The notes under the pieces are model-generated. The model was not told the origin of the DNA. It was given only the letters and a program-made list of their open reading frames with translations, and made no database searches. Below, piece by piece: positions 1-24,679 of a DNA stretch of 41,933 bases. Numbering within the stretch: position 1 is the stretch's first letter; every line of letters starts with the position of its first letter. Origin of the DNA: Atractiella rhizophila (lineage: Eukaryota); contig MU271582.1 of NCBI GenBank assembly GCA_021432655.1, positions 1 through 41,933 on the forward strand, written 5' to 3'. The position numbers and the translations under genes are program-made.

Positions 1-95
1 ACCCTAACCCTAACCCTAACCCTAACCCTAACCCTAACCCTAACCCTAACCCTAACCCTAACCCTAACCCTAACCCTAACCCTAACCCTAACCCT
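1..95. repeat. Telomere, (CCCTAA)n, about 16 perfect units, left chromosome end
   Basis: Perfect ACCCTA tandem array from base 1 to 95, C-rich on the + strand as expected for a left end. Confidence 0.98.
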
Positions 96-2790
96 CATCA
101 ATCGCTATTGCCGCCGGGTTATTGTTCCCTATGCTGACATATTCCGTATTGTCGATGACGATAGGGCGAAAGAAGTGACGGGCAGACGAAGTCGCTCTTG
201 CTGCTTCCAACACCGTACATCGTGCAGCAGAATGAACTGCATTGGGCCCGTCGTACGTGCGCATCTTTGTTGAAACAACTGCATTTGATTCATACGTTGA
301 CACGACAAAAGTTCTACATCTCTCCGCAATTGCCGCATCCTTCATAGGAAGTCGAGAGGACGACACAGACGATGGAGCGTGTCTTGTAATGATCTCCTGG
401 AGGACGGTTTCAAGCGTCTTTGCAGAGTATACGTAGCCTTCATTCGAAAGTGGAGCTTCTTGGGAAAAGACGTCCTGCACGATCTCTTCGTACGCGCTAA
501 TGGATTGTCTAACAGTCATACCCAACCTTCCGAGCATGAGAGCGATCCATCCTCCCGTGGAAGTGCCGCAGATGAGATCGAAAACATCGCACGGTCGGAC
601 TTCTTCTCCTTCGGGAACGTCGAGGAGATGTCCAACATGGAGCATGACGACTTCCAGCATGTAAAGGGTGGAGAAGGTACAAATCCCTCCGTTGTCGATG
701 GCAAGGATTCTGACACCTTGATCGTTCGCCTTCTTGACATTCTCCGGGACTTTGAAGATTTTAACGGTTTGGACTGGGGAGGAGACGCGCGATGGAAAAG
801 CTGATGGAGTGGGAACCTCCTGCGATTTAGTGCCGAATGGGTTGACGGCGTCCACATCCATGGTTTGCTTAAACTCGAGGACTGGCTTGTTTGGCGTGAA
901 CCCTGGATCATCTGCCTTTCTCTTGGGACGCAAAATATTGTCGGTTTGAACATGAGAGGGGCCAGGGGTTGAGAAAGTTGTGGGAGTAGTAGCTTGTTGT
1001 ATCGATGGGAAATCACAATCCATGTTCATGTCAACGTCTCCATCCAAGTGGTAATCCGCCGCAACCCCTGTAGAAGATGAAGCAATGGCCCCAAACCCGG
1101 CTTCACTCTCAAAGCCGACAAGTATTCCAGCTTGTTGTATCGATGGGAGATCGTTATCCAGGTTCACATCAACATTTCCATCCAAGCTGTCCTCTGCACT
1201 TGCGGAATCTGACATGGGTGACATTTGTAATAGCTGCCCAGGCGGCAGAGATGCTTGAGAAGTTGGCATCATGGTCGAAGAATACGCTGGGCGTTCTATT
1301 CCGTACGAAGCCACATGGCTGACCCTGCTTTTAGACAGTTCATCCTCAGACATAAGTGCTGGCGCGAACTCAGGAAGGTACGATTCGTCAGGGAAGCCGA
1401 GTGTTACCACTATTCATTGGATATCAGACCTGAACGGCTGAGAGCAGATAGTTACCATCTTCCTGTTCCTTAATGCAGTGTTGGCAACCCTCCAACAAGT
1501 CGATTGCTTGCTCAACAGTCCATCCTTCAGTATCGAACGGCCACTTCGACTATGCGCTTTCTTAGCTATTCGGAATGCCCCAAAGGGACAAAGGATACCT
1601 ACCGTTCCGCACAAGGTAGAGAGGTGAATGTCGGAAGAAATGGCGATTTTGTTTTTTGGCCGTAGCTATTAAAGCTTAGCGACAAGCACAGCAGAATGTA
1701 AACCAACGGTACCATCAACATAGCATCGAGAAGAACATCCAAGGGATCAGGAATTTGCTGGAACTGTCAATTAGAAACAATGATGCCTCATGTTAATAAG
1801 TGATTAACTTTTTCACTGCCCGCAATATCGCATACGATTGAGTCAACAGGTTCACCTTCACGGTGTGATGGAGAAGGTGGTCTGGAACCTCGACCTTCAA
1901 CCTTCAAGGGCAGACGCTTGTGCCACCTGACCTTGATCCGACTGATGAACAGAGTTTGATTTCCAACGGGGTATGCTGCTGTAGAAAGAATACCCTTTCC
2001 TGAACATGGCTTCAGAGGAGCAAGGCATGAACAAGCGAGAGAATTACGTGGTTCATGTAAAAGTGGACCATGACGCAGCCTGGCACCTAGATTGTTTCTG
2101 CAGTCACGTCCTATGTCGAATCCCAGCGGTGGGGATTCGAACCTGAGATGAAAGGATTGACCGCTCTGTGCAAAGGTTGCATGAAGCCAATCAAACGCTT
2201 TCACAGCTCCGACTACCATACAGAGATCTCTGTCGTTGGCACAGCGGAACCAGTTATCTAAATCATCTTGCAAAACTTGCTCATAATATCGCCTAAAGTA
2301 GCTCTCTGCTAGAGCTACCCGATCAACTTGGAACCGAGGCGCACGTTGTTTCGTCACGAGGAAAGCTGACACTGAAGAGTGACTTGCAATTTCAGCTGCG
2401 AAAGTGGGGGCGGGAACACTAATTTACGGCTGAGCGCCAAAATTCATTTATGCTCTGAGGAAGAACGTACATAGGCGCAGAGACGTTTACCGCAAAATTT
2501 GTAGATGAGCTTGTGCCTTTATATATGGGCGCCAGTGGACTGCAAGCAGCGTCCACAATGCCGTGATGCAGTGGTGGGTCGCCAGCACCCAACAAAGTGC
2601 GAACGTTTCGTGAGACGACAAATTGACCATCTCGGCAGTACCCGAAATCACCAATTTCACATTCGCCGAAAGGTTGCACCCTTCTCGTCGAGCCAGACGA
2701 ATCCAGCGGAAACATTGGATTAAAGAGGGGGAAATGATGGCGAGTATCGTACATCGTCTTCTCATAGATTTCCAGTTCAGATAACGGCAT
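88..2790 (-). CDS. Six-exon gene (819 aa): gasdermin-like N-terminal domain, low-complexity linker and patatin-like phospholipase domain, 3'-truncated by the telomere
   Basis: Exons 2790-2471, 2418-1809, 1763-1713, 1665-1603, 1549-1456 and 1409-88 are joined by five 45-53 nt GT..AG introns and give one open frame of 2460 nt. Patatin motifs: ILAIDNGG, FDLICGTSTGG, ARATSSA, NNP. N-terminal motifs: PLFNP..EIGDFGY..DGQF..N, LCMVVGAVKAFDW, NQTLFISRI, DPLDVLL..IAISSD. The stop codon TAG comes from telomere sequence. Confidence 0.85.
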
Positions 2791-3387
2791 GGTGGCGAAT
2801 GTCTCCTCTGCGCTGCTTTGACTTTGAGACTAGACTGACTTCTGATCAGAGAGGAATGGTCGACAGTTACGACTTTTATACTGTCACAAGCCAGGTATTT
2901 GATGGATCTAGGCCTTTCTAAGTCTAAAGCATTCGCAGAAATTACGGACAAACTTGAAGGAATTGAAATCGAGAAGCTTTGAGGGTTAGGACGAACGTAC
3001 AAACGGACAAACAACGCAATGACTAAGTCACGTGACTTTATCGTTGCTTTGCAAGTCTAAGGAAAGGAAAGCGCTGGAAGTTATGCTCACTCAGAGCCTC
3101 CCAACAAGAGGAGCTTAAGCAGAGAGGATGGTTAAGAGGTCGAAAATATAACGCGGAAAACTGCTTGTCCACAAACCCGAGACATGAGTAAGGGTGCCCT
3201 CAGACCTTGCTCAGATGCAATGCCTCACGATGTAATGAGTTACTTTGTCCGTTTGTATCCTTAACCCCAATCAGCGCTGACGGTACATCATTTTGACCCT
3301 CTGGTACAACGTACGGTTGTACCAGCGGTAGTGCGGTACATCTTTGCACAATGGTAATCATTTAAGGGGCTACAAAATGACAAATTC

Positions 3388-3760
3388 ATGACACGGCAGT
3401 CTTCTCCGGATAAGATGATCTATTGCAACCGCCCTGATACTGCAACAGCTACGATTCCCCCGACGCTCCTACACTCTGTTTTTGGGAGGTTTCTCTACGA
3501 GTGTGAGACTCACAAAATGACTGCAGACGATAGCGTTTTCGCGATGCGACTGTGCTCCGCCCTGTCAAATTTCTATTCCAAGGACAACAAACGCGCGCAA
3601 GATATATTCGTGACCTTTCGCAAGTTCCGGTATTCATGTCATCCATAGTAGCACAAAGAATTATAATCCGGGCGATATATCCGTCAACGGTTTCCGTTAT
3701 GCTATTGCCGAGTGCAAGAACGAAATCGGGCAAACTGGTCGCCCTGAGGGTTTTGCGAAA
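3388..3760 (+). pseudogene. Fragment of a Crinkler-associated restriction-endonuclease-fold (REase) domain
   Basis: CNRP..IPPTLLHSVFGRFL..C...LCSALSNFY..R, then in another frame GDISVNGFRYAIAECKNEIG (D..ExKNEIG). Broken by frameshift or stop. Confidence 0.65.
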
Positions 3761-3971
3761 GCGGCCGAAGGAGGCCAGGTCCAAATGGTTTTGCGCTTCG
3801 GTTTTGGTCGACCAGTTTTAAATCCGACGGGCTCAGACACCTGGGGCGACGTGTCTGCTCGTGACACCACACGAAACCCGCCACTTTTCCAATTCGTTCC
3901 GATACTCCTCTTCAAATAATTCGGAGAAAACACTTGGGGTCAGAGGTTGAGGCTGACCGTGCTTTGCAAGT

Positions 3972-5296
3972 TTGCTGTCGGCACTAGATATCTATCGAGG
4001 AGGGAGAGGCCAGGTGCGCAACGATTGTGACGACTCTGGCTATGGCATCCAGTGTGATGGAATATTGACATTTCAAGATGAATCAAAATCCATTCTTGAG
4101 GTCAGGTCAACCGTTGCTTACAACTACTATGCACCAAGGATAGTTAACCTTGCTCGTGGAGAGAACAATCAAGGAACTGCCTTAGGGATTAGTAATTGTC
4201 TGGAGAGTGACGAAAGGTCTATCATCTTCAAGGTCCACGTCTCACTTACAGAGAGATTGACGTCTTCTCAACCCGTTCCTCCTTCGTCTAGCTCGGAATA
4301 AAGATGATACACAAATGAACGAGATTTGGATTACTGTTCGATGGTCTCCATGCCATTGTTTTGGAGAAAATCTACCTTCCAACCTACCTCGGTTTTATCT
4401 CGCGTGCTCCGATGTCTACTCCGTCTTGAATACCCCCATTTCTCAAACTGCTCTTCGGGCTGTCCTTGGGAGATGACCTTGACATCCGACGACATACAAA
4501 TGGCTTCGTTCCGCCGGTCCCTGCCCCACTGCCGCCGACCAACGAGAAACCTTTGACACGACTCCGACCTTCTTCCTCTTCAACGACCCGTTATAATTTA
4601 CGGTCCAGTCGCAGGAAACAACAGGCTTTCACACCTGTATGTCTCGAAATAAGCACCGTCCGATTTCCGGCATCTTGTTATCCTGAGCATGCATTCCAGT
4701 TGACAGATGTTTGGCCTGAAGGGAAAGGTCGTGGAAATTGTGTTGCTCAGCTGGAAATTTGGTCACTTCATGGTAGCGGTGGCGGTAGCGTGGTTTATGA
4801 AGGCTACATTATCGACGGAGAAGGCTACTCCATGCGAGTGGCAGTTAAGCTCTTTGACGAGACGAAGCGCGATTGCTTTGAACGCGAGTCGATAGCTTAC
4901 CACCTTCTGGAGAACTATCACGGGGACGCGGTGCCGATGGTTTATGGCATTTACACCTTCCGGAAGGGTATGGGATTGTTATGGAGTTTTTAGAAGGGGG
5001 GTCGGAATGTCAGGACAGGAAGGTTATGACATCGCAAAGGAGGCTAGTACGCAGACCCCCTACAATTGTTCTAGAGACATAAATTGGTCACAGGTTGGAA
5101 CTCATCACAGCGATCAAGAAAATCCGGAATTCTTCATGGCGATGTGGAGATGCGCAACGTGTACTTAGGAGAGTCAAGAAACTACTTTTACGACTTCTCA
5201 TATTCATGGACGACTAAAAGGGTTGCAACTCCGGCAGCGATGGAGCGAGAAATAGAACATTTGGAGACCCTGCTTGAAATGGACGAAGGCAATTAG
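3972..5296 (+). pseudogene. REase-like plus atypical protein kinase gene, disrupted
   Basis: CDGILTF...ILEVRS (PD-(D/E)xK-like), Gly loop GSGGGSVVY, VAVKLF, FERE, then a frameshift to IVMEFLEG, and HGDVEMRNVY..YDFSYS. Contains stops and frameshifts. Confidence 0.65.
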
Positions 5297-6035
5297 CATG
5301 TGCTCATTCGCATTCCTCCTATAAAATTCATTGTGAATTTTTAAAGATCAATCAAGGATCGCCACGAATTCCCCGCCCCCTTCCAGTTATTGCCTAATAT
5401 TCGTACACATTCTGTCATAATAGCTGCATGGCACGACGCATTGAGAAACTCTTTTTGTGCAAAATCAAGCACAAGGTTCTCATTTTCACAAGTCATATTC
5501 ACTTTTGTCGTCTTACTGTCATCTTGTCAATCTTAGTTTTGCCATCTACTAGTAACTGCATTACCAAACTTACACATAACACCCCTCTTGCAATATCCTC
5601 TTCCCTCTACTACTGGCCGACCACATTCTCGTCCCTCACTTTCCACTCTTCTCTCCGTTTTCCCTCCCTTCTCTCCGGCACCCACGCCTAATCGTCCCAC
5701 TTCATCTCGGCCGCTCTCCCTCTGCTGTGGAGTGGATGGAGGGAGGAAGGGAAGAGTGGGAGGAAGACGGGTTCGGACGGAGGGAGACGCTGGGTCACTG
5801 GGCACTGGCAGGGAACAGGTATTTATGGTGCCATTTGGGAGTGACGGTCACTAAAGCATACCTGATGTAATGCGATGCGTTACAGATCCAAAACAGACGT
5901 AGTTTACAATGGATAGAGGAACAAACGAAAGAATGCTTTGTGTATACGTAGAGAAAGATGAATAATGATGATGGACGGGATGACGATAATGTGCGAGACA
6001 CAAAAAGCTTCCTTTCTACCAAGGAAGACAGGTAC

Positions 6036-9000
6036 TACTTGGGAGGCGCTGCTGGCGCCTTCCCTTCTCCCCTTCGCTGCTTTTGAAGCTCCTTCCTCAA
6101 CACCTCGGTCCATAGAGGTCGCTTCAGTATCCGCTCCAAAATATTACTTTCGCCATCCACTCCCGCTTCTCTTCATCTGCACCAGCATAGAAATGCACCT
6201 CGCTCTTATCATTGAATATGAGGCGGAAGGAACGTAAACATGCATGTACTCGTCGTCGTCATCGTTCGCAATCGAAGTGAGCAACGTGAGGTTATTGTCC
6301 TCGATCGCAACGACTTTGAGAAGGTCAAGCTGGAACATGGGGGACGACGTCGTTGAAGGCTCGTAACCGTGCGCCTTTCAGTTGCATGCACTGACGTCTC
6401 CAAGTCTATGCTGAAATCAGAAATTACAGCTTGTGGATAGTGTGCCTTACCAAGTCTCGGGTTGAGGAATCCCTCATGAGACTGTGTCATGCCACACTAG
6501 GCCCTTAAGCCCAAACATTGCCTTGTCCAAGTTGATGGGACCAGCCTTGCGACCAATTCCGGGAAGGTAAGGTAGGCGCAGAATCTCTAATTCCACGGGT
6601 CCGATGGGTTTCTGACCTCCCTTCCCCATGGGTTCCCCATAAGAGCTGCTAATCGCCGTACTGGATCCACTGGATCCACTGGAGGAACTTCCGCTGCTCT
6701 GTGACCTGAGCTTCAATGACTGTGAACGCAGTGTCTCGTGAGACGCGATCATTTCCGCTGATAGGAGACATTAGCGGCTGAAGGATTCTTCGTTTTCGTA
6801 GGTAAGAGCTTTGCAGTTGTTCTGTCAAGGAATCGATGACCGTGCGAGCGAAAACACCGTCGTTGCGACAGTGATATAGGAGGGATTCCCTCGAGAACGT
6901 CGGTGGAATTTGTTCCCGGGCTGGGAAAGATTTTGCGGCCTTCTTTGGCGAGCCAAAGAGTCTGCCAAGCCAAGAACGATATTTCGATTCGGTGGATGTT
7001 GGAGCGACTGGTCGAGGGGGAAGGAGGTGGATATCGCGGTTAGGGTCAATTTGGAGGTGGAACCGGAGAGAACATGTCACCCGGGGGGCGTAGTTACTGT
7101 TACTTGTGAAATTAGGCGCAGACTCACAGTTCCCATTCTTGATTCAAGGGAACATCGCGCCAACCGAAACGTATCCTTTGTCAAAACGTCTGTTTCTCCG
7201 TTTGACACAGGTGAAAAAGGTAGGTTTTGTGGGTACGAGTAGACCAGCAAGTCCCATTTTTGTGACTAAAACTGGAAGAGAAACCGTTCGTGAATAGCAG
7301 AGACGACGCACGTTTGACGAAAACTACCCCATGTCTGCTGCGTACAGTCTCCGCTCGCTGAAGTCGAAGTTGCTCAGTCATCTCGCTCTGCCTCAGCTTC
7401 AACGACAGTCCTGAGCCAAAAAAGATGAAACCTACAGCATCGCTCGAATGAACTTTCCCACAGTCGACGTCCCCAGCGTTTTCAACACTACCAACAGTGG
7501 CAGCAGTAAAACGGCCTCTCGCTCGACGGCGCGATACTTTGTCTGTACAAATCAATGCGGCATTAGACAAGAGAGGACAGCAAAGAGGCGTACATCGCTA
7601 CCATCTGCTACACGCTCAAATTCTCTCCTCAGATTTTCTACAAATGCCGGTCCAGGAGTAGGTAGAAGGACGTCAGGCAGTATCGCGGGTTCGCTATCTG
7701 TTCGCGGAGCAGAGGTAGATGGGGCGAGTGACACTGTTAGTTTCTCTTCTTCTACTGTTGGGTGGCGCGTCTGTCCACAAACTTTGAATTCGCAATAAAG
7801 AATGAGGAAATAGAGGAAGCACGAACCCTCTGAACCTGCATATCCTCCGCATCCCCAGTGCTGAGACTCCTTCCCTTCCGTTCGCCCTCCTACGCGCAAT
7901 GATCTCCTTCTCCTTTTGCCCAGGAGTCATTGCTCCACCCTTGCTGCCTGCACATTACCGCCACCTCCTATCCCGGACAGATTGCTCTGCTCGCTGACCA
8001 TTCGACGATGCCCTCCCATATCGCTGACCAGCCTTTCGAGCGGAGATTCGGCAGGAAGAGGTGTGAGTAGCGACAAGTGTAGAGGGAGAATTCGCAGAGC
8101 TACAGGCTGCGGAGCGGGCGCGTCAAGCAGCTGAGGTGAAGGCACTGGAGATGGTTTAAGAGGCAGAGAGGGCACACGGGCATCAGGCGCTGATTCAACA
8201 TTGTAGTTCGCGAGTGGATCCACAAGTCCAGCTTCCTCCAGCCTCTTTTGTTTCATCCGCCCATGAATCCCGTCCCTCGTATTCCTCGTACGTCCTCTAA
8301 AGCTTCCTCCTCCACCTCCACTACGCGAAAGCGACGACACAAGCACAGAATTCTTGCGCTCCAAAAATCCTCCTAAATCTCCAAGTCCACCGCCTGATAA
8401 CAGATCCAGATCCGGCAGAGGGTAAAGTGAGGACATCGAGAGGGATTTTGGCATGTGCAAATAATTCGTGTTGGGAACGGAGGGAGCCTTGAAACCTTGG
8501 TAAGCGAATTGAGTGAGGTGGATGATGCGAGGGGAGCTGGCGGAGCGGAGGAGCTGGGGAGGCGAGGGAGAGGACGTTGCGTTGGCGGGGAGGAAGACAT
8601 GGGCTGCGCCTGTGGCGCTATTACGTCTTGTTGGTGTTCCTCGATAGCAAACTCGATAACATAACCGTCGCCTACTTCTTCCTCCTCTCTATCCTCCAAG
8701 ATTCTGAGGTCAATTTTCTCGCCCCTTCTTAATCCGAGACCAGAAAACTGCCCATCGCTCTCTTCCCGAGGACGCGGCAGGCCCTCCAAGACTTAGCAGG
8801 TGACGAAGGGCGGGGTGCAGTTTGAGAGAGAGTCGGGCTAAGACGTTCATCATGAAGGAAATCGTCAATCATCTCCATCGAGAACCGCGAATCATCAATG
8901 GAACCCATGGAGGAACGCGAACCATTTTAGCGGAAAGAGAAATATGAGGAGTTGTCGTCCTCTCAGACATCGCGACGCCCGAACTGTGGCAGGGATAGGG

Positions 9001-9155
9001 AGTTTCTCTCCCTCAATGATCAACTTCCGAAGGCGGATGGTCGATGGATCAGGCGAGACGGATGGAGGAATGACGGGAGAAGGGGAGGGAGAGACAACTG
9101 GTTCTGAAGGAGGCGGATCTTTTCCCCTAGGAGGCTGGAGACGAAGCGACGTCAT
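6036..9155 (-). pseudogene. Degenerate Bud4/Mid2/anillin-like gene (anillin-homology plus PH region)
   Basis: Fragments in changing frames: AGDVDCGK, HGVVFVK, LRFHLQIDPNRDIHL, FARTVI, LEILRLPYLPGI..GLKGLVWHDTVSHEGFL, LDLLKVVAIED, KREWM..PLW. Many frameshifts. Boundaries are approximate. Confidence 0.65.
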
Positions 9156-12100
9156 GCATTTCTTTTTTTGCACGATTGCCCCCAAGCGAATGAACTTACA
9201 CATACTATGAGTGAGGAAAGTGAAGGGAACAGTTCCTACAAGTCCTACCGCGATTGCAAGATGATACCAGTACGAAGCAAACTGTGTCCCAAACGTTCGC
9301 GAAATAACCACGAATGCAAAGTGCCGCGAAGCGACCACAGTTGTAAGTAATGGCGAAGCGAACTGGGCTTTGAGAGTTCGCGAAGCGAACACTATTGCAA
9401 ACTCTCGCTGCACGAAACGTTAGCAAGCAGTAGAGAAGCGAACCGAAGGAGATGGTGGGCAGTTGCGAAGCAAACGCGATCGTGAGCAGTCGCGAAGCGA
9501 ACGCGACCGCCACCAGTCGCGAAATCCTTTGCAACCTCTCGCGAGGAGAGCATTTGGCTAAGCTGCTATGAAGGGTTGGGTTTCGCGAAGTGAACAAGAT
9601 TGCAGCTCTTCATTCTTGCCAGCTGTCTCCGCACGAACACGATTGTGAGCAGTCGCGAAGGGAAAACATTCGCAAGCTCTCGCGAGGAGAACATTTTCGG
9701 CAAGTTGCCACCAAGGGTTAGGTCTCTCGAACACAACACGATCCCAAGCAGTCGCGAAGAGAACACGACTGCGAACAGCCGCGAAGCGAACACGAATCTC
9801 AGCAGCCGCAAAGCGAAATCGTTTGCAAACTCTCGCGAGAACATTGGGCAAGCTGCCACGAAGGGTGATAACTTGAAGTTTAAGAGAGGGGCGAGGTGCG
9901 AGGCTGCGAGGTACGAGACCAAACCAATAAGAATGTGGTCTAGCTATGTAAAGGTGAAATACATTACCTGCGAGGTGCGAGACCAAACCAATAAGAATGT
10001 GGTCTCGCACTCGCAGGGGTTAGTCATACAATGTGACTGATTTGGCCGGACTAGTGTCAGCTGGAGTTGGAAAGCTGAAAGACACTGAGAAAAGAAATAG
10101 AAGTATACCAGGGATAAACATCTGACCCGATACGGCTCATCGCTAAACCCGCCACTCTTTTGCAAATCGTAGTAGAAGGAGACAACTTCAGAGACGACTT
10201 AACATTTCAGAAAACTTCCAATCTGGCTGGCGCCTGCTGGGTGTAGTCTTTTCTGCTGAAAGGGTAGATTAATTTGTAATCACATGGCGGGATAAGAATG
10301 GACAAACTTGTATTTACTAACAGGCTAAGTGTTCGCTCCGATGCCTCTCTTTTTTGTGTTTCGAATCATTCCACTCATTCCACTGAGTTCTAGCGCAGAG
10401 CTGGTCGAGAGTTAGGATCGGGGAGAGTCAGTTGCGTGGCAAGCTTCAAAAGTTTGTGATTTTCTGGGAGATACGGGCTAAAGAAACGAAGGATGATGCG
10501 TCCTGTCGCCCACAAATCGGCAGGGATAGGGTGGAATGTCCGTTTCGGTCCTCCACTTTCGCCAACTTCTGGGGCAACCCACGTCTCGTTCCCCTGAAGC
10601 CTTCTAAAACCGTGTGAGAATTAACTCGTACAGATAAACCAAAGTCGATAATTTGGAGAGTGTCGCCAATAACAACAAAGTTTTCTGGTTTCAGATCCAA
10701 GTGCGCAAAGTCATGACTGTGTATGAATGCGACGCCTTCAATGAGTTGTTCGCAGAGACGAATGGCTAAAGCTGGGTCCAGATGTCCTTCCAAATCACGC
10801 AAGGGAACTCCAAGCGGAAGAATCAGGAGCAGGTCATCTTCACATTCCAACAGGTCGATGATTTTGATCGTATGATTTCTTGAGTCGTCAATTTGAGCAA
10901 GGGAACGGTGAATCGCAACTTCTTCGTGGTCTTCAACGACCTTGACGATAAATCGCTGTCCTCCTCGACAAACTTCTGCGACAAGCGAGGAAGAAAGTGA
11001 CGACTACATTATTGAGATCAGTGATGAAAGGACCGAGTTGGCAAATACGGACCAGACTTGAGGTGGTCCATCTCTTTAAACCCTGGGGTTGTGGCAGGGC
11101 AAGGGAGTAGCCTGCATCAGAGCCGTCTGTACGGGACCTCTCAGTTTTTTGCGGCTCCATGGTCACCGGACTGGCGATTTTCTTTATTTTCAGAATCTTT
11201 GCGCCTTTTGCTGACTTCTGAGCGGAAAGCTTCAAACCCTCCTACTTGTTCTTTCAGACCTTGCTCAATCTCCTGCACGTTAATTTTTTTCTCCCAGTCA
11301 ATCACAGCTGTCAAGTTGTACAGCTCGAGGGGAAACGTGAACGCTCCATCCTTTGTGAGGAGGGAATAATCGTCCCGTCGGTATACAACTTTCCCCTGTA
11401 AAAAGATCAGAGCAAGGAGCTAAAGAGCGAAATCTACGTACGCTAGGATTCTTAATATCCTCACTACACATCAAATATCGCCTAACCGTCAGATCGCGGT
11501 CCACGTAGCAACAAATGATGACAAAGGGCCACGATTCTTTTTCGCTCTGGTTAATGGCATATTGCGCAATCCTAACGACAGTAGCCCCTTCGAGCAGCAT
11601 TCGCGCTTGGTCCTCTTCCTTCTCTTGCTTCGATTCCGCCACCGACTGAACCTCAACGATAAATCTGGGGATTTCACCCACGCGAAACTCAGGGCAAAAT
11701 CTATAGCGGGCAATTTGCCCGTGTTCGTTGTTTTCGACGACAGGTAACAAGTGGAATGTCCATTGTTTATCGCTGTAAATGAAGTCTCAGCTCTATCCCA
11801 CAACCCAAGCCGCATACGATAAAAAGAACAAGTTTTGCACCATTTTCAACCCCAATCGCTCAGCTAGCTCGGCTGCCACAATTTCCATGTACGTCGCGAG
11901 GAAGTATCCTTCTTTGTACTCGCGATAACGGTCAAGGCTCATATCCACATGGGTTTCAAGCGCCGAATGATAATGTCCAAGTTCTTTCCTGGTTACCGTC
12001 CGGTTTGAAGGCGTCTGAGAAGGAAACTGGTTTTGAACTTGGCGCGCAAATTGAAGGTAGGGCTCTATTGCTGCTCTGAAAGCAGAGGCAAGACGAAAAT

Positions 12101-12300
12101 TCGACCCAATTCCTTTTTGGCATCGTTGAGCACTGGGGACACACCGTGAGCGTCAATAATGTGGTTCATCTCGAGCAGTTTATCGTGAGGGAGAAACGAT
12201 CCACGTTTCTCAGCCTGGAATTGCGCAAGTAATTAAATACCGTTAAGGTTTTCGGTATTACGCCGCCAAACTAGTAATGTAGTTAGCAGTCCTGTTAAAG
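8760..12300. repeat. Segmental duplication, copy A (direct repeat of 20341-24271)
   Basis: Starts CTCTTCCCGAGGACGCGGCAGG at 8760 and 20341. Similarity is colinear through AGTTAGCAGTCCTG at ~12294 and ~24265, with one non-matching interval (9868-10028 versus 21449-21961). Confidence 0.95.
9270..9865. repeat. Degenerate ~27-bp CpG-rich minisatellite (CGCGAAGCGAACACGATTGCGAGCAGT-like), copy A
   Basis: CGCGAAGCGAAC and TCGCGA recur at about 27-bp spacing. Confidence 0.85.
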
Positions 12301-12779
12301 AGGAATGAGGAGGGAGCGCACCACCAGGCTCCTCCTCCAACGGCAATACTTCTGCAATAAACTGGAATTCAGATACGTCCGGTTGAGACTCCCAACAACG
12401 ACCAAGCTTTCTAGATTGCAGAAGAATCTCCAACGGCAAGGAATTCTCGGGGGGTCTAACTTTGTGATCAACACTGGGGTCGTCCCAAGGAAAATTGATA
12501 GATCGGATAGAGTCTTCAATTTCGGCCAGATCCGTCTCTTCCAAACGAAGTGGCGTCTTGAATTTCCAAATCCTAACTCTACGACATCCTCCATCCTGTT
12601 CAAGCCGCTTAAAAGTCGGTTGTTTGACTTCCAGAATGCTGTACATTTCATCTTGCAGATCGTCAACAACGGATAACTCGTTCACAGACAAGGCGACGCG
12701 AGATGGAGGGATATAAAAAATCAGGCTTTCCAACAGCGACGTAGAAAAGAACTAGACGACGTTGAATCTGCTCCATCAT
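10390..12779 (-). pseudogene. Crinkler-like effector gene copy A: N-terminal header, REase-like domain and Ser/Thr kinase
   Basis: ATG at 12779 (MMEQIQRRLVLFYVAVG), header motifs VRIWKF and FQFIAEVLP, middle domain RFIVEVQS..DQARMLLEG, kinase HLDLKPEN, IIDFG, WVAPE, DLWATG. Lesions: frameshift in a T run near 12715, CAA>TAA at 12233-12235, a 12-nt deletion in the PRSx motif and a frameshift at ~10585. Confidence 0.8.
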
Positions 12780-12836
12780 GATCAGGTCTGGCTCGTTCTA
12801 GCGGAGAAATGTGAATGATGAGTGAGGTGATCTAGT

Positions 12837-13053
12837 TGTTGGAACGAGCCGGATCTGGATCCACAGCGCACACGAAGATGGTGGTCAAAACGCTGTCTAC
12901 AATGCAAAGAACACTACATACCTGGATCCACAGCGTACACGAAGATGGTGGTCAAAACGCTGTGGATCCAGAAGGCAAGACCCTAACCCTAACCGCAACT
13001 TGTAGAAGCACCAAAAGCATGCTGAGTGCCTAATGAGAGCCATATCTCTCACA
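12837..13053 (-). repeat. 3' LTR (217 bp)
   Basis: TGTTGG...CTCTCACA. Matches 19298-19447 plus 67 extra bp. Confidence 0.93.
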
Positions 13054-13068
13054 CCCCCCCTCACTCAG
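13054..13068 (-). promoter_or_regulatory. Polypurine tract
   Basis: The minus strand reads GAGTGAGGGGGGG immediately before the TG of the 3' LTR. Confidence 0.88.
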
Positions 13069-13317
13069 CAGCCGAGGAAAGAAGGAAAGAGAACCGAAGA
13101 GAGAAAGAAAGAGAGAAGGATGAACGGAACCAAGAGAAAAGGAAGGAGAGTGTGAAATTATAGCATCAAAAGAAATCAACACAGATAAATGAACAAATAG
13201 GGAAAGATTGTCGAATACCAATACCGAAATCAGTAACCCCAAGATGAAGTCCTTTCAACGAAAATCGAGACCATAAACATCCTATATCAGCCCGGTAAAG
13301 GAATACGATGCCTCCCC

Positions 13318-16300
13318 CTAATTCTCCAGCAGACCAAGCATCGAGCATAGCTTCCAGTGCTGGACACTACCTATACCCTTCGTGAGAACGTCTGCTGCCA
13401 TTTGTACCGTCGGTATCCATGTTAGTATTATCTCACCCGATTCGACCCTCTCTCTTGTAAAATGATAGTGCACCTCAACATGTTTCGTGCGGCCATGGTT
13501 TGCAGGATGCTTCGCTAAGGTAAGTGCACCCTGATTATCCCCTTTTATCGTCGTCGGTCCCTGCTGAGGAAAACCCAGTTCCGACAATAGTCCCCTCAAC
13601 CACATCACCTCCCTAGCTGCACTTGAGAGCGCGATGTATTCTGCCTCCATCGAAGAGATGGCTACGGTGGGCTGCATCTTTGATATCCAAGATACCGCCA
13701 ATCTGCCTAGTCGAAATACTACGCCAGAGACTGAGCGACGTGTATCTACATCTGCTGCATGGTCAGAATCCGAAAATCCTTCTACCTTGGTGGAACCTGT
13801 GTCATCCCATGTGAGTTTAAAGTCAAGAGTGCCAATAAGATATCTAAAAATCCTCTGAACGCTCGCCCAATGCCTCCTGCCAGGATCAGCACTGTATCGG
13901 GCCGCCCTGTTGACCGCGAATAAGATATCCGGGCGCGTGTTCACAGCAGCGTATATTAGAGCACCTATCGCCTCTCTGTAAGGTATTCTCTTCATGTACT
14001 CACGTTCCTCCTCCGTTTGCGGCGCCCAGGCTTTCAAAACTTTCTCGTTTATGTCGCAGGGAGTGTTCACTGAGTTCGCATCCGACATACCAAAACGTTC
14101 CAAACATTTTCGGACGTAGTCCCGCTGATCCAAAGTGATACGCCCAGAACTCCTATCCCAGTTAATACGCATCCCTAAGAAATTCCCAACCACTGCCGTG
14201 GTTATCTTGAACTGAGTCCGTAACAGAGCATATAGCTCGTCGATGAGATGTTGAGATGAAGCAACCACAAGTCCATTGTCGACATGGAGGCAGATGATCG
14301 TTGTATCTGCTCCCCTCCTCTTGATGTAAACTCCCCTGTCAGCATTCGTGCGCAAATAGCCATGTTGTGAGAGAAAGTTGTGTAACGTATCGTTCCAACC
14401 CTTCCCAGCTTGTCGGAGGCCATACAGCGTCTTTCGAAGCCTAAACACCTTTTCAGGTTGACTCTGGTCAACAAACCCCTGAGGCTGTTTGAGATATACT
14501 TCCTCTTCCAATGTGCCATTGAGAAAAGCGTTGGACACGTCGAACTGGCCGCCGTACCACTTATTTGTGGCAGCGAGGGATAGAGCGGACCTCACGGACA
14601 CCATCCGTACCGTAGGCACATAAGTCTCGCCAAAATCAACCCCTTCTATTTGACGATCCCCTCTGGCTACTAAGCGCGCCTTGTACTTGAGGACGTTCCC
14701 ATCTAAATCCCTCTTGATCAGCAAAACCAACCCACTTCGAGCCTATGGCTCTTTTTCCTTGCGGAAGGTCGACTAGCCTCTCCTGCCAAGTCCCCATGGC
14801 CTGAAGTGCCGCGAATTCCGCTAAGATAGCCACCCACCACTTGTCAGCATCAGGCCCTGCAAGTGCCTGTCGGAAGGAAGGTTCATCTAAGTTACCATTC
14901 CAGTGAGCGGCAGCCGCATATACTTCCCATTTCGTAATATGGGTGCCCCTAATCGCTTCATCCTCCAATGAACAAGGCGAAACGTGAAGTGTATTCTGCA
15001 TCTCGCAAGTAGCTATCGCCGGTAGGTAATCCTTTGGCCGAAAGTCCGCTCTGATCGTAAAGGCATTTACCCGAGATGTCGAATCGGTATCATCTGTCCC
15101 TGTGGAGATAGGCGGGGAGGTAGTCAGAATTGGTTGCGGACGGCCACTGTCTAAAGCCTTGTAGTCAATACGAGGGAGGTTTCGACGTGACCGGTTATGT
15201 CGTGGATACGGGTGAGGCGAATGGTCTGGTATCCTCTTCCTCCGCTGGCGCGTAGGAGGAATAGCAGGAACATCAGGAGGATCAGCTACATCACCTTGAG
15301 AAACGAGGGTCACCTCCCCCTTTTGAACCCTTGGTCCATCATCTATCAGCATTTCTCCACTCCCAGTCAGATGCCGCTCCACAGCTGGTGGCGTTGTCGG
15401 TGGGATTATGGCTTCAGGACCTGGAACTCGAACAGAAACATCATCAGCTAACATATCGAAATCTGAGGGCATGAATTCGTGTAGAGACCATTTGGCCAGT
15501 TTCTCGATGTCCCCCATCGGCCTATCCTTGTAAAACTGGTCCTCAAACCACATAACCTCCTTGGCCTGAACGAAACGCCGTGATTGAGGAACCCAGAACA
15601 ACCATCCCTTCGCACCCTCCAAATACCCAACAAAATATCCCATCAATCCCCTCGCATGTAGTTTCGACGTCTGCTTCTCCTTCGGAATGTTGATAACGCC
15701 TAGGCATCCGAACGTGCGTAGATGAGAAACATCCGGACGATCCCCATCCCATGCACCAATTGGTACCTTCCAAGACCCATGCGAGTATGTAGGCATTCGA
15801 TTGAGTGTGTAAACCGCGAATTGAACCGCTTTCTCCCAGAACGATAGCGGAAGTCCCGACTCGAAAAGAATAGTTCTAGAAATATTAAAAAGGGTGTACC
15901 ATCTCCTCTCAATAAAACCCATCTGATTGTGAATGTAAGGAATAGAAGTTTCGTGTGAAATACCTCGGTTTTGAATAAATGCTTTGAAATAAACAGATTG
16001 AAACTCACCACCGTTATCGCTTCGAAGTACCTTCACTTTGATGCCATAGCGCCGCTCAACCCCCAAAATCCAATTCCGTAGGACCAACGCAGCATCACCC
16101 TTGCTGCGAAGGGGAATCCACCATAACCTAGCGGAGGATTCCTCAACAATTCCAAGACCATAACGCTCACTGGTATGCATCGCCCCAACTGGGGCAGGTC
16201 CCCAAAGATCACAATCGGTTCGTTCGCCTTTGGCATACGAATTCGACGTAGTAATCACTCGATTTGGACGAGCCTTCGACTTCCCAGCGGCACAAGATAT

Positions 16301-19164
16301 GCATGGGTCCAACTTTGTTGAATTGCAGTCAAAGCCCGTCACCCACTTCACAGTACACAGCTCATGCCATCTCTTAGAACCTATATGGCCGAAACGCGCG
16401 TGCCAGGTCTTAGCAGTCGTAGCTACGAGTGCAGAGGCATGAGCCTTGTACTCCTTTGCAGGTAAGGAAGGGGCACTTGCCTCCAGCTCGATTTGTCGTT
16501 CTCCAAAACTGGCCATCCCAAAGTGAACACCAATTTCGCGTCGAAAAAGCAATCGATCACGAGTGTTGGTAAATCTGATGCCACACTTCATAAGATCCAG
16601 TTGGGCTATGAGCGTGACGCCGAGGCCAGGGACGTAGAGGCCAGTACCGAAATCCGCTTGATAAACTTGGCGACCGCTGACGTCTTCGAGCAGAGGGCAG
16701 ACTCCGCCAGCGTGTGTCGCAAAACCACCGCTCCCGAAAGCACCACCAACGAATACTGGAGGGTGTATAAGTCGTAGGTCTTGAAAGAGATCAGGAGAGC
16801 CAGACATGGGTACGGTTGCAGCGGAGTCCACGAAAGTCGAGATGGATATGGTATCAACACCAGGTACATCACGGTTAAAGAATCGGTGAGCACCGTCGGG
16901 AATTTTAGCGTCGTAATCGGTAAAAGGAGGAGCTGGAGGAGTCGATCGAGGGTTGGAATCATTTCCGAAAGAAAAGGAAGAAGGAGAAGAAGCAGCAGCG
17001 ACATTAGCCGCAACATCAACGGGAAGGCGCTTGTCAACAACGCAAGCAGGCGAGTCCAAAGAAGAAAGCAAGAAAGTGGGCAATTTGTACGAATCAAAAG
17101 TTTGTCGATAAAGAGAAGTATTGTGAAAGTTCGTAGGCATGGAACGTAATTTATAAGAAGAATCAACGGAAAATGCAGAAGACGTAGAACTGGCAGAACA
17201 AACGGAAGGAGAAACAAAGAAAGCAGAATGGCGGGAAGTGGCGGGAGACGGGGTCCGGGTCGGTTCAGTTTGCTGATCTTGAAGGAATTCGAACGCGATG
17301 TACTGTTCGTCAGTGTACGTCGCAAGGGTCTCTTCGAGAGAAGCTTTCCCATCTTGAGCATACACCGCCCGGGATAGGAAGTGAGGAGTCGAATCCGGAA
17401 CTGGTTCATCAAAGGTATAACCTGGGATGTATAAGGGGTGGTGGATGTGAGATCGCTCGATGGAACGGATGGGAACATCCCATCGACATTGCTCATAGGC
17501 AGCCTGAATGTAAGATGGCCAATACGCATTATCCCCTTCGAAAATTGGGTAGCCATCCATATCCCCATCGTATCTTCCATCTGGTCCAGGATTGATAGGA
17601 TCCCTGGAGGATGGGGGATGTCTAGTGCTGGTAAGGAAAACAGAAGCCGTGGTATCGGACGCGACACCAGCAACGAGTCTCTGATTCGGGGTACTGAAAT
17701 AAAACGGCGCCACATTCGTCCTAATCGTGATGCCCATCTGCCTGAAAGCAGCTACCCTCGCCTCTTCTCGTGCCTTCGGCGTAGTCGGAACCGGGCATGC
17801 TCGAGACAAGTGTCCCATCCGCAGGCAATAAATGCATTGGTCAGGCGCGACCACAAAGTGTCCCGAGGGGGAAATGGTACCAGGCCAATTTTTGACATTG
17901 TCGTAATCCCATGCCCGTGATCCAAAAGTGTCGCGATCAGGGTTAGAGACGACCCTGCGAGTAAAACGTGGATATCGCTCAGACACAATTCCCTTTGGAG
18001 GTCGTACACTATACGTGTCCATGGCGCGTTCACCCACCGGCCTGAGGTCGTGTTGGATGATCTGGGTACGAGACCGGGACGGAGTGACCGGATCGATCCT
18101 AGGCATTGGAGGGGTTGTAGACATCTGAGGAGAAGACCTTGGAACATATGAACGATGCATCGGAGAAGGTGGAGGACGAGATCGAAAATCTTGACAGAAC
18201 CGGCCAGAGGGACGAAAACGAGGTCGGGAAGAAAATCTCTGATCGTAGCCTCGGTCCGCCACAACTAGATAAGCTCCAGTACCACCGTCGTTGTCCATCA
18301 CCGCAGAGTATACCTCTGCACTCTGAGCCCGGAGCATTCGATCCTCCATGACCCCTCTCACTTCCCGAGCACGCCCGGCATCCTTGAGCCTTTCAAAGCA
18401 TTCATTGAGGTTGTCCCTGGTGACCTTGTTCGGGTCCAGAGCAATATCACGCCACGTCAACTCGAGAGAGTTGACAAAAATTATAAAACGAACAGGTTCG
18501 GAGAGCGCGTACTGAGACCCGGAAGACAATAGATCGGCGTAACGGCTGTTCCAAAGGGAAATGTATCCAGCGATGTCAAGGGACGGATCCATGGATTGAC
18601 GAAGATCACAAAAATCGGCCCAAGCAGAATGAGACAAAATGGACTGGGCTTCACCGTAGAGAGACCTCAACTTCGCCACGATTTCAGACGCAATTTCCAT
18701 GTCCACAGGGATTTCGTTCAGTTCGTGTCGCTTGAGGTTCGCACGCAACACCGCAACTGCATTTGCATTCCCAGCATCCCACTGCGTAATATTCACCTCC
18801 CATGCCCTTTTTGCTGATTCAGACGCACCACTCCAGGATATACCGGTTTCGTGCGAGTATATCTGTCCTCCGGCATCCGGTCCAGACAAAAACGATACAC
18901 CATCAACCTTTTTAAACCCAGAACTATCGCCCTCCACCAAGCATCGAAACCGGCTAACACTTGGGGAACGCTGTCGATGATGAAATTTCCATTTCCTCCA
19001 CCAACCGGGTAATGGGGTACATCCATGGAGTAGGGAGTCGAGAATAACGGTTCAGTGACGGAGGGGGAGGGCTGTCGTGTAATTGTGTCCGGAATATGCA
19101 AGAAGGGTTGGTGCGGGGGAGGGTCTCGGTCATCAAGTGGGGTGGGTAGTCGATTGTTGGACAT
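13318..19164 (-). pseudogene. Copia gag-pol polyprotein with two frameshifts
   Basis: Probable ATG at 19164 (FDAWWRAI gag start) with a frameshift near 18840. Zinc knuckle CIYCLRMGHLSRAC, protease FVDSAAT, integrase WHARFGH..CISC, DLWGP, SDNGGEF. Second frameshift at ~14730. RT motifs KARLVARG, DVSNAFLNG, LYGLRQ, HVDN, and RNase H FSDSDHA. Confidence 0.95.
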
Positions 19165-22199: not shown

Positions 22200-24679
22200 T
22201 AGTCACATGGCAAGATAAGAATGGACAAACTTGTATTTACAAACAGGCAAAGTGTTCGCTTCGATGGCTCTCTTCTTTGTGTTTCGATTCATTCCACTGA
22301 GTTCTAGACGCAGAGCTGGTCGAGAGTTAGGATTGGTCGAGAGTTAGGACTGGTCGAGAGTTAGGATTGGGGAGAGTCAGTTGCGTGGCCAGCTTCAAAA
22401 GTTTGTGATTTTCTGGGAGATACGGGCCAAAGAAACGAAGGATGATGCGTCCTGTCGCCCACAAATCGGCAGGGATAGGGCGGAATGTCCCTTTCGGTCC
22501 TCCACTTTCGCCAACTTCTGGTGCAACCCACGTCTCGTTCCCCTGAAGCCTTCTAAAACCTTGTGAGAATCAACTTGTACAGATGAACCAAAGTTGATAA
22601 TTTGGAGACTGTCACCGATAACAACAAGGTTTTCTGGTTTCAGATCCAAGTGTGCAATGTCATGGGTGTGTATGAATGCGACACCTTCAATGAGTTGTTT
22701 GCAGAGACGGATGGCTAAAGCAGGGTCCAGGTGTCCTTCAAAATCGCGCAAGGGAACTCCAAGCGGAAGAATCAGGAGCTGGTCACCCTCACATTCCAGT
22801 AGGTCGATGATTTTGAGCGTATGGTTTCTTGAGTCGTCAATTTGAGCAAGGGAACGGTGAATCACAACTTCTTCATGGTCTTCAATGACCTTGATGATAA
22901 ATCGTTGTGCTCCTCGACAAACTTCTGCAACGGACAAGGAAGAAAATGACGACTATGCTACTGAGATCAGTGATGAAAAGGACCGAGTTGACAAATACGG
23001 ACCAGACTTGACGTGGTCCATCTTTTTAAACCCTGGTGTTGCGGCAGGACAAGGGAGTAGCCTGCATCAGTAAGAGCTGTCTGTACGGGACCTCTCATTT
23101 TCTTTGCGGCTCCATGGTCACTGTACTGGCGATTTTCTTTATTTTCAGAATCTTTGCGCCTTTTGCTGACTTCTGAGCGGAAAGCTTCAAACCCTCCTAC
23201 TTGTTCTTTCAGACCTTGCTCAATCTCCTGCACGTTAATTTTTTTCTCCCAGTCAGTCACAGCCGTCAAGTTGTACAGCTCAAGGAGAAACTTGAATGCT
23301 CCATCCTTTGTGAGGAGGGAATAATCGTCCCGTCGGTATAAAACTTTCCCCTGTAAAAGGATCAGAGCAAAGAGCTAAAGAGCGAAATCTACGTACGCTA
23401 GGATTCTTAATATCCTCACTACACATCAAATATCGCCTAACCCTCAGATCGCGGTCCACATAGCAACAAATGATGATAAAGGGCCACGGGTCTTTTTTGC
23501 TCTGGTTAGTGGCATATTGCGCAATCCTAACGACAGTAGCCCCTTCGAGCAGCATTCGCGCTTGGTCCTCTTCCTTCTCTTGCAATTCCGCCGCCGACTG
23601 AACCTCAACGATAAATCTGGGGATTTCATCCACGCAAAACTCGTAACCGCTGCGAGGGGAAAATCTATAGTGGGTAATTTGCCCGTGTTCATTCTTTTCG
23701 ACGACAGGTAACAAGTGGAATGTCCATTGGTTATCGCTGTAAATGAAGTCTCAGCTCTATCCCACATCGCAAGCCGCATACGATAAAAAGAACAAGTTTT
23801 GCACCATTTTCAACCCCAATCGCTCAGCTAGCTCGGCTGCCACAATTTCCATGTACGTCGCGAGGAAGTATCCTTCTTTGTACTCGCGATAACGGTCAAG
23901 GCTCATATCCACATGGGTTTCAAGCGCCGAATGATAATGCCCTAGTTCTTTCCTGGTTACCATCCGGTTTGAAGGCTTCTGAGAAGGAAACTGGTTTTGA
24001 ACTTGGCGCGCAAATTGAAGGTAGGGCTCTAATTGATGTTGCTGCTCTGAAAGCAGAGGCAAGACGAAAATTTGACCCAATTCCTTTTTCACATCGTTGA
24101 GCACTGGGGACACACCGTGAGCGTCAACAATGTGGTTCATCTCGAGCAGTTTATCGTGAGGGAGAAACGATCCACGTTTTTCAGCCGGGAATCGCGCAAG
24201 TAATTGAATACCGTTAAGGTTTTCTGTATTACGCTGCCAAACTAGTAATGTAGTTAGCAGTCCTGGTAAAGAAAAATGTGATGGAATGACCGCAGGGTCA
24301 TACGAGACGTTGGATGTTGTACTGCGAGAGGTGAATCGCACAACTGGGCCACGATATGGAGATGTCTAGGCGCTGGGACTTCTCCCCAATAATCTGATAG
24401 CAGACAGGCAGGGTCTAGTTCTTTCAATCTTTCAGAGGGGAAACTGATCGCTTTCAGAAGCTCTTCTTCCTCAATGGCCAGCGTTGGGTCCAAAATCCAC
24501 AAATCAAATTCCTTTCCATGCAGTTTTTCGCCCAACTTTTGAAGGATTGCCTCCTCCAACCCAGCAACCGTTTTGTTGGCAGGAAATTCGATAACAAACG
24601 TTTTTCCGACTAGCTGATTTTCATAACCGGGTTGCACTACTTGATACAGTAACTCATAAACGACGTCGTGAGCCGACAT
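22200..24679 (-). pseudogene. Crinkler (CRN)-type effector gene copy B: ubiquitin-like CRN header, REase-like domain and kinase
   Basis: ATG at 24679. The header has KTFVIEF..TVAGLEEAI, FDLWIL (LxLFLAK position) and HLHIVAQL (HVLVxxP position). In-frame introns lead to FSPRSGY..FIVEVQS..DQARMLL and kinase HLDLKPEN. DFG reads NFG, and there is a frameshift before WVAPE. Confidence 0.82.
22318..22368. repeat. 17-bp unit x3 (GGTCGAGAGTTAGGA(T/C)T)
   Basis: Three tandem copies in copy B and a single copy in copy A (~10403). Confidence 0.9.

Follow-up and report, generated by a model that had tools for sequence, protein, structure and literature searches.

The window analysed here is a stretch of 41,933 nucleotides (nt) of the Atractiella rhizophila contig MU271582.1, which begins with a chromosome end. 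The gene next to this end is encoded on the minus strand, starts with an ATG at position 2790 and runs toward window position 1. It joins an N-terminal domain of approximately 360 amino acids (aa), in the following called N-domain, via a low-complexity linker to a patatin-like domain. The initial annotation proposed that it combines a candidate gasdermin-like pore former and a lipase in one gene. A single open frame does join the two domains, but the patatin domain is cut off by the telomere and approximately 130 aa of it are missing.

Gene structure and truncation at the telomere

Splicing and translation with five GT..AG introns (2470–2419, 1808–1764, 1712–1666, 1602–1550 and 1455–1410) reproduced exactly the 819-aa frame without internal stop that had been proposed for this gene. 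A sixth intron (2047–2000) had been overlooked, as had the fact that the stop codon is telomere repeat. The additional intron is 48 nt long and in frame, and its removal results in a product of about 803 aa. It was identified with a spliced contig of sequencing run X3 and with the homologue alignment, in which the 16 residues encoded by it (HEPR|KG...) are missing from the homologues.

Exon 1 (2471–2790) encodes the N-terminal helix and the GDFGY hairpin and is followed by intron 1 (2419–2470, 52 nt, GTACGT..AG). The core of the N-domain, with the motifs YF.RYY and CMVVGAVK..W, is located in exon 2 (2048–2418), from which the phmmer matches described below were obtained. Intron 2 (2000–2047, GTAATT..AG) is the one left unspliced initially. 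Exon 3 (1809–1999) contains GNQTLFISRI and SRPPSPS, and intron 3 behind it (1764–1808, 45 nt, GTTAAT..AG) has an alternative donor at 1835, with which it would be 72 nt long. The DPLDVLLDAML block is encoded in exon 4 (1713–1763), which is separated by intron 4 (1666–1712, 47 nt, GTACCG..AG) from exon 5 (1603–1665, LRPKNKIAISSD...). Intron 5 (1550–1602, 53 nt, GTAGGT..AG), exon 6 (1456–1549), coding for part of the helical subdomain of the N-domain, and intron 6 (1410–1455, 46 nt, GTAACT..AG) follow. Exons 3 to 6 were placed with the homologue alignment. Exon 7 (88–1409) is a single open frame of 441 codons and contains the end of the N-domain (VTLGF, 1407–1393), the linker, the patatin domain and the stop codon (90–88).

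The six N-terminal exons are collinear with six database proteins in the alignment. Introns 2, 4, 5 and 6 are excised at exactly the predicted borders in the spliced contig from X3, a run of unstated type that yet contains this contig. Because it is only 90–94% identical to the window, the contig derives from a paralogue or a relative. Intron 1 was spanned by no spliced contig seen; it is supported by the restored frame and by exon collinearity. The weakest junction is that of intron 3, which is read through in the X3 contig and fits the homologues by frame and length. If it is retained, the frame stops at 1793–1791. Contigs of the DNA run X1 that match the window exactly cover 804–1153 and 1165–1462. 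Another X3 contig (record 21, 97% identical over 2638–2790) skips 58 nt just upstream of the ATG (2791–2848), with GT..AG ends on the plus strand, and has 71 nt of exon 1 (2566–2638) swapped for 6 nt; these differences could be a paralogue indel or an antisense intron.

The telomere array occupies positions 1–95 (period 6, 15.8 copies, 100% matches with Tandem Repeats Finder). It reads ACCCTA on the plus strand and TTAGGG on the strand of the gene, as is seen for a chromosome end on its C-rich strand. The repeats start directly after ...NNPAAIAIDE and supply both the last codon, for Gly, and the TAG stop codon; the last base derived from the gene is approximately 93. The frame is therefore cut off and not completed. 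Paralogous proteins continue at this point with (S/A)(K/N)(R/H)IWG(E/Q)GS... and approximately 130 more patatin residues, which are followed in P0009, P0010, P0012 and P0060 by the P-loop VAIVGGAGNGK(T/S). Paralogue contigs from X1 and X2, DNA runs that may be the source sample itself, likewise extend beyond place 93/94 with non-telomeric sequence; translated by hand, the extensions read ...AIDEAKRIWGQGSE and ...DESKRIWGEGSQ and match P0007–P0010. Thus, the copy in the window ends within the patatin domain: after AIAIDE it has one Gly and a stop, and the fold is incomplete. A remnant of the NB-ARC part was not found in the window by tblastn with P0009, P0010 and P0060.

The patatin domain, the linker and their relatives

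A patatin domain in the last exon had been predicted, and the Pfam search bore this out. The domain spans 100–702 and matches PF01734 with E 4.5e-14 (53.5 bits, cut-off 27.7; profile positions 2–191 of 191). The nucleophile elbow GxSxG is kept as GTSTGG (567–550) and is invariant in the alignment of the window with five Atractiella paralogues and six outgroups (A4). The oxyanion motif D-G-G-G-x-R/K-G is missing and DNGGICT is found instead (696–676). The same DNGGICT is present in four of the five paralogues, with DNGGIAT in the fifth (P0012), and five of the six outgroups have DGGGxRG. At the position of the catalytic Asp the window has VSIGNNNP (138–115) and no Asp, and the paralogues have VAIG, VAMG, VAVG, IAVG or VTIR; in four of the six outgroups D-G/A-G precedes NNP. 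Altogether, three of the five patatin features that were tested and both NOD-like receptor (NLR) features are absent from this copy. Judged by its truncation and its motifs, the lipase half of this copy is almost certainly dead. An active lipase is unlikely even in the intact Atractiella paralogues, and more so in the window copy, because the Asp and the canonical oxyanion motif are lost and only GxSxG is kept. Across the whole expanded Atractiella patatin-NB-ARC clade (P0007–P0012) the Asp is lacking, the oxyanion position reads DNGGIC/A-T and GxSxG is retained. The domain may be a conserved, possibly non-catalytic effector domain of these NLRs.

The nearest relatives of the patatin part are six proteins of A. 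rhizophila (Basidiomycota, Pucciniomycotina, Atractiellomycetes) with 85, 81, 77, 73, 72 and 71% identity at 96–100% query coverage. Since a P-loop follows the patatin domain in P0009, P0010, P0012 and P0060, these four can be assigned to the patatin-NB-ARC NLRs. More distant relatives carry NB-ARC together with TPR, or ankyrin or WD40 repeats; TPR families were found in P0016, P0022 and P0028. No match to a repeat family (TPR, ANK, WD40) of Pfam was obtained anywhere in the window. The summed contig depth of X1 and X2 is several-fold higher over the patatin part (76–760) than over the N-domain part, and 198 X1 contigs could be placed on the window, most of them at 85–99% identity. The patatin domain therefore belongs to a large, young multigene family of the source organism. 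A scan of prokaryote genomes with the patatin part gave 93 pattern-matched stretches, none of which was confirmed.

With the PLP-1-type fungal NLRs and the Atractiella patatin-NB-ARC family (P0007–P0012, P0060) the gene thus shares the patatin domain (71–85% identity), the leader of P0010 and the motifs of the clade. It differs from them in lacking NB-ARC and repeats as a result of the telomere cut, and in carrying the extra domain of approximately 360 aa and the linker in front. For PLP-1, patatin activity has been reported to be required for cell death in Neurospora; the Atractiella clade, in contrast to PLP-1, has no catalytic Asp. The closest solved structures by sequence are CapV-type patatins of the cyclic-oligonucleotide-based anti-phage signalling system (CBASS; 9wn1, 9kh7, 8zr9) and potato patatin (1oxw), with E 5e-5 to 6e-6. 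GxSxG and the NNP block of these structures align with the window, and the DGG of the CBASS patatins lies opposite the SIG of the window (yvDGG, in yvDGG..NDP, opposite yvSIG). The solved patatins are 320–373 aa long and the match ends at approximately residue 187–206 in the best-covered CapV-type chains of 333–364 aa, which leaves the window without the last third of the fold.

Between the two domains lies the linker (703–1392, 234 aa), of which 69% are disorder-promoting residues. Its 234 codons are open in the frame that joins the domains, for which the chance is approximately 1.3e-5 in a uniform-codon estimate. From approximately 930 (RPKRKADD) the linker is homologous to the leader of the patatin NLR paralogue P0010, residues 187–465 of which match window positions 930–94 at 75% (tblastn). 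The breakpoint of the fusion therefore lies within the linker, at approximately 930–1390. The linker also contains an internal duplication (1146–1006), in which a block with PSIQQA at its end is repeated at a distance of 46 aa (at 1146 and 1008); it was not reported at the DNA level by Tandem Repeats Finder.

The N-domain family and the neighbouring genes

Using the 203-aa read-through of exons 2 and 3 as query, phmmer found five proteins among 1.84 billion representatives (E 3e-32 to 1.5e-7, 39–42% identity). A profile search of a collection of 5.8 billion sequences likewise yielded five proteins with E ≤ 0.001 and added a sixth. Altogether, six distinct homologues were found (P0001–P0006), all of them hypothetical proteins of A. 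rhizophila. A word-indexed search with the same 203 aa, covering longer proteins only, gave no match, and in a metagenome scan with the family alignment 596 pattern-matched stretches were obtained and none was confirmed. The N-terminal part had initially been assigned to a widespread, unannotated basidiomycete family; the family is real and conserved, but by sequence it comprises six proteins of one species and is not widespread.

Conserved blocks of the family are an N-terminal helix, the GDFGY hairpin, YFK.Y, CMITGVVK..W, GDQTLFISRI, a Pro/Ser loop (SRPPSPS in the window, 1880–1866) and a helical part with the consensus DPLDVLLEAML...AIASD.DL..LC...W..Q.A..LL. Beyond the N-domain the C-termini of the members differ. 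In P0001 and P0002 the protein ends there or runs on as a disordered tail, P0003 and P0005 share an unannotated C-terminal domain of approximately 250 aa, and P0004 has another one. The C-terminus of P0006 gave an RNase III-like match below threshold (21.6 bits, cut-off 35); apart from this, no other Pfam domain was found in the six homologues. None of the 67 patatin relatives matched the N-domain profile and none of the six N-domain proteins matched Patatin. The same fusion was thus found in no other protein, and among the sequences examined the joining of N-domain and patatin appears to be a one-off.

In the ESM Atlas (7.7 million clusters), the nearest neighbours of P0004 (residues 1–395) and P0002 are unannotated clusters of Basidiomycota (330–426 aa, 59–113 members), which reach scores of 0.95–0.96 and share 208–216 of 256 features with the N-domain. 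They probably represent the wider family meant in the initial annotation, a kinship that we treat as a lead from language-model features. HMMER did not reach these clusters from the 203-aa window query, which gave the five matches only. The named, that is Pfam-bearing, Atlas neighbours are all gasdermins (two of two with one family member as query, three of three with the other): Bact_GSDM with 0.85 and 0.84, PJVK (pejvakin) with 0.82 and 0.80 and GSDME with 0.79, scores that are in the range of leads and below the 0.9 line. The Atlas structure search, with a query model of predicted local distance difference test (pLDDT) 0.44, returned nine rows, four of which are gasdermins (GSDMD, pejvakin and two bacterial gasdermin clusters; template-modelling (TM) score 0.33–0.35 by query). 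The same search returned a Bacteroidota cluster of 261 aa (TM 0.47/0.67) and proteins from Basidiomycota of 801, 415 and 532 aa (TM 0.61–0.65 by query), the first of which carries WD40.

By language-model features and ESMFold structure, fungal (RCD-1, HET-Q1) and bacterial gasdermins are accordingly the nearest named neighbours of the N-domain. Its predicted layout would also be gasdermin-like, with a beta-rich part, the Pro/Ser loop and a helical C-terminal piece that might be an inhibitory segment. In contrast to gasdermins the N-domain is longer, has large variable domains behind it, gives no profile or sequence match and is not adjacent to an S8 or CHAT gene. Neither a gasdermin-patatin fusion nor a basidiomycete gasdermin of the N-domain form was found described in the literature, although proteins of this kind might be included in the homologue tables of PMC7414189 and PMC8851545. 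A separate search of 401 Bacteroidota genomes with PF04598 gave two weak matches below the cut-off, in frames of 876 and 1792 aa, which are not gasdermins.

Several further genes and gene fragments were identified in the window. A Ty1/copia-type retrotransposon on the minus strand (13318–19051) has two long frames with RVT_2 (E 1e-55), integrase core, GAG-pre-integrase and retroviral SH3-like domains. An open reading frame (ORF) with a Crinkler N-terminus (24257–24826, minus strand; PF20147, E 2.3e-5, just above the cut-off) is located upstream of an ORF for a protein kinase (22398–22952) with the same orientation, and the pair resembles a gene of the Crinkler-kinase type. Closer to the telomere there is a second kinase fragment (10449–11003, minus strand). 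The plus strand encodes a C-terminal fragment of condensin Cnd3 (29611–29916, E 4e-16) and a hAT transposase dimerisation domain (37293–37565, E 6e-5).

Origin and possible function of the gene

We consider it probable that the gene is a young, one-off chimera truncated by the telomere, in which a member of the N-domain family and part of a patatin-NB-ARC NLR were brought together in the subtelomere of an Atractiella-like basidiomycete. The N-domain would come from a small, fast-evolving family and would be built from a beta-rich N-terminal portion, the Pro/Ser loop and a small helical subdomain. Through subtelomeric recombination, the leader and patatin, which form the 5′ part of a patatin-NB-ARC NLR gene, would have been placed behind an N-domain gene, with the low-complexity linker between them. 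A later terminal break inside the patatin part would have been healed by telomere addition, with loss of the last approximately 130 aa of the fold and of everything behind it. The most that the remaining gene, which has no 3′ end of its own, could produce is the N-domain followed by a long tail and a crippled remainder of patatin. If the gene is expressed, only the N-domain could act. As its most likely role, this domain would be a membrane-targeting module that executes cell death in the manner of gasdermins and is kept inactive by the helical subdomain it carries itself; we give this a roughly even chance. If it does, the helical subdomain would be the candidate inhibitory piece and the Pro/Ser loop the candidate cleavage site.

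Several points speak against this chimera scenario or against parts of it. The telomere junction is bridged by no independent contig or read of runs X1, X2 and X3, a transcript of the exact window copy was not found among the contigs of these runs, and the spliced X3 contig is that of a paralogue or relative and retains intron 3. The gene model, the truncation, the family relations and the loss of motifs rest on observation; the order of events, with the fusion first and the truncation later, is inferred, as are the gasdermin-type fold and any activity. The gasdermin neighbours in the Atlas share 116–147 features with the N-domain, and matches within one family usually share at least 170. The two AlphaFold2 models had a pLDDT of 37.1 and 33.9, too low for use, with the helical subdomain as the only confident part (63–86, P0004 residues approximately 260–330), and Foldseek with the low-confidence model (pLDDT 37.1) as query found no match in the PDB at E ≤ 0.001. 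No gasdermin family of Pfam, in a set that does not include PF26164, was matched by the N-domain exons of the window at E ≤ 1 or by the six homologues at E ≤ 0.1. PADLOC gave nothing at E ≤ 10 for any of eight sequences, and the family profile matched no PDB chain at E ≤ 10; the PDB is reported to include the RCD-1 structures 8JYY and 8JYZ. An ORF for an S8 or CHAT protease is absent from the window (six-frame ORFs from 45 aa upward in 2800–13300 and from 90 aa upward elsewhere), and on the opposite side of the gene is the telomere. Approximately 80% of fungal gasdermin genes have been reported to lie beside an S8 or CHAT protease gene.

How these points bear on other explanations differs from case to case. 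An assembly artefact, with the real gene continuing beyond the repeats, would agree with the missing bridge and with the highly repeated nature of the patatin family, since repeats favour misjoins and most of the 198 X1 contigs placed on the window come from paralogues. However, the sequence opens with the 95 nt of perfect repeats, oriented as they should be at a chromosome end, the junction has one or two G in common with the repeat, as in de novo telomere addition, and most of the run-X2 depth at 134 and 166 carries the letters of the window; we regard an artefact as very unlikely. A product consisting of the N-domain alone would result if intron 3 were retained (approximately 290 aa), or the patatin part could be the untranslated remnant of a neighbouring NLR that is in frame by chance. 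The X3 contig, which removes introns 2, 4, 5 and 6 yet keeps 1764–1808, and the weak donor GTTAAT are consistent with the former; the patatin paralogues normally have a start Met of their own approximately 100 aa ahead of the domain (MDTS...), and no second domain accompanies the N-domain in P0001 and P0002. Against both variants, the homologues run in frame past the point of intron 3 and reach the DPLDVLL block after a spacer of about the same length, a linker of this length without a stop in the joining frame is improbable by chance, and the X3 contig has a 1-nt insertion at 1761 and, as the product of a paralogue or relative, has little bearing on the window copy. We regard an N-domain-only product as unlikely. 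The initial proposal of a two-effector membrane-attack module, in which an intact gasdermin-like pore former acts together with an active patatin phospholipase that a cleavable linker connects to it, is largely refuted by the truncation and is hardly tenable for this locus. The open frame across both domains, the retained GTSTGG elbow, the gasdermin leads from ESM and the requirement for patatin activity reported for PLP-1 fit it, but the frame ends in the telomere approximately 130 aa before the paralogues complete the fold, neither the catalytic Asp nor the oxyanion motif is present, and the fusion is seen in no other protein.

The nature of the N-domain itself is more evenly balanced. It could be a lineage-specific domain with another fold and role, such as an adaptor or a regulatory module that precedes enzymatic or repeat domains of variable kind, and we give this serious weight, somewhat short of an even chance. 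No gasdermin was matched in Pfam, PADLOC or PDB chains, no protease gene adjoins the gene and the ESM scores remain in the range of leads. In addition, the family profile stayed at chance level in the 401 Bacteroidota genomes (three matches, per-genome E 0.004–0.05, best 0.0038; none in a first small search of five), and with approximately 360 aa the N-domain exceeds fungal gasdermins, which have been described with small C-terminal domains. On the other hand, all five named neighbours in two Atlas searches are gasdermin clusters and four rows of the structure search are gasdermins, and an all-gasdermin set is hard to obtain by chance among the clusters of the Atlas. The suggested gasdermin likeness thus finds support, to a limited extent, in language-model and ESMFold neighbours and none in the searches of Pfam, PADLOC and PDB chains, and a gasdermin-type fold is about evenly likely. 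A more far-reaching version is distinctly unlikely: the N-domain would be a modular basidiomycete gasdermin-type pore former, with executioner, helical inhibitor of its own and exchangeable C-terminal domains, and the gene before the break would have been an NLR with the executioner in cis (N-domain, patatin, NB-ARC, repeats). The C-terminal partners counted for this version are patatin in the window, the RNase III-like match in P0006, the unnamed domain of P0003 and P0005, and WD40 in the Atlas neighbour.

In its present state, the window copy is most likely a decaying by-product and not a working two-effector weapon. The moderate interest of the locus lies in the N-domain family rather than in this broken copy. 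If the N-domain has a gasdermin fold, it would represent a further branch of gasdermin-like proteins, from basidiomycetes, which are longer, carry variable domains behind and have no partner protease next door, and this would bear on the regulation of fungal cell-death executioners. If the executioner was indeed placed in cis with an NLR, a gasdermin would have been a built-in part of a NOD-like receptor, in place of the usual arrangement in which a separate protease-NLR cleaves it. The locus illustrates how subtelomeres may make and break immune-type genes, here with an NLR-family domain that was apparently grafted onto a cell-death-type module and then cut.

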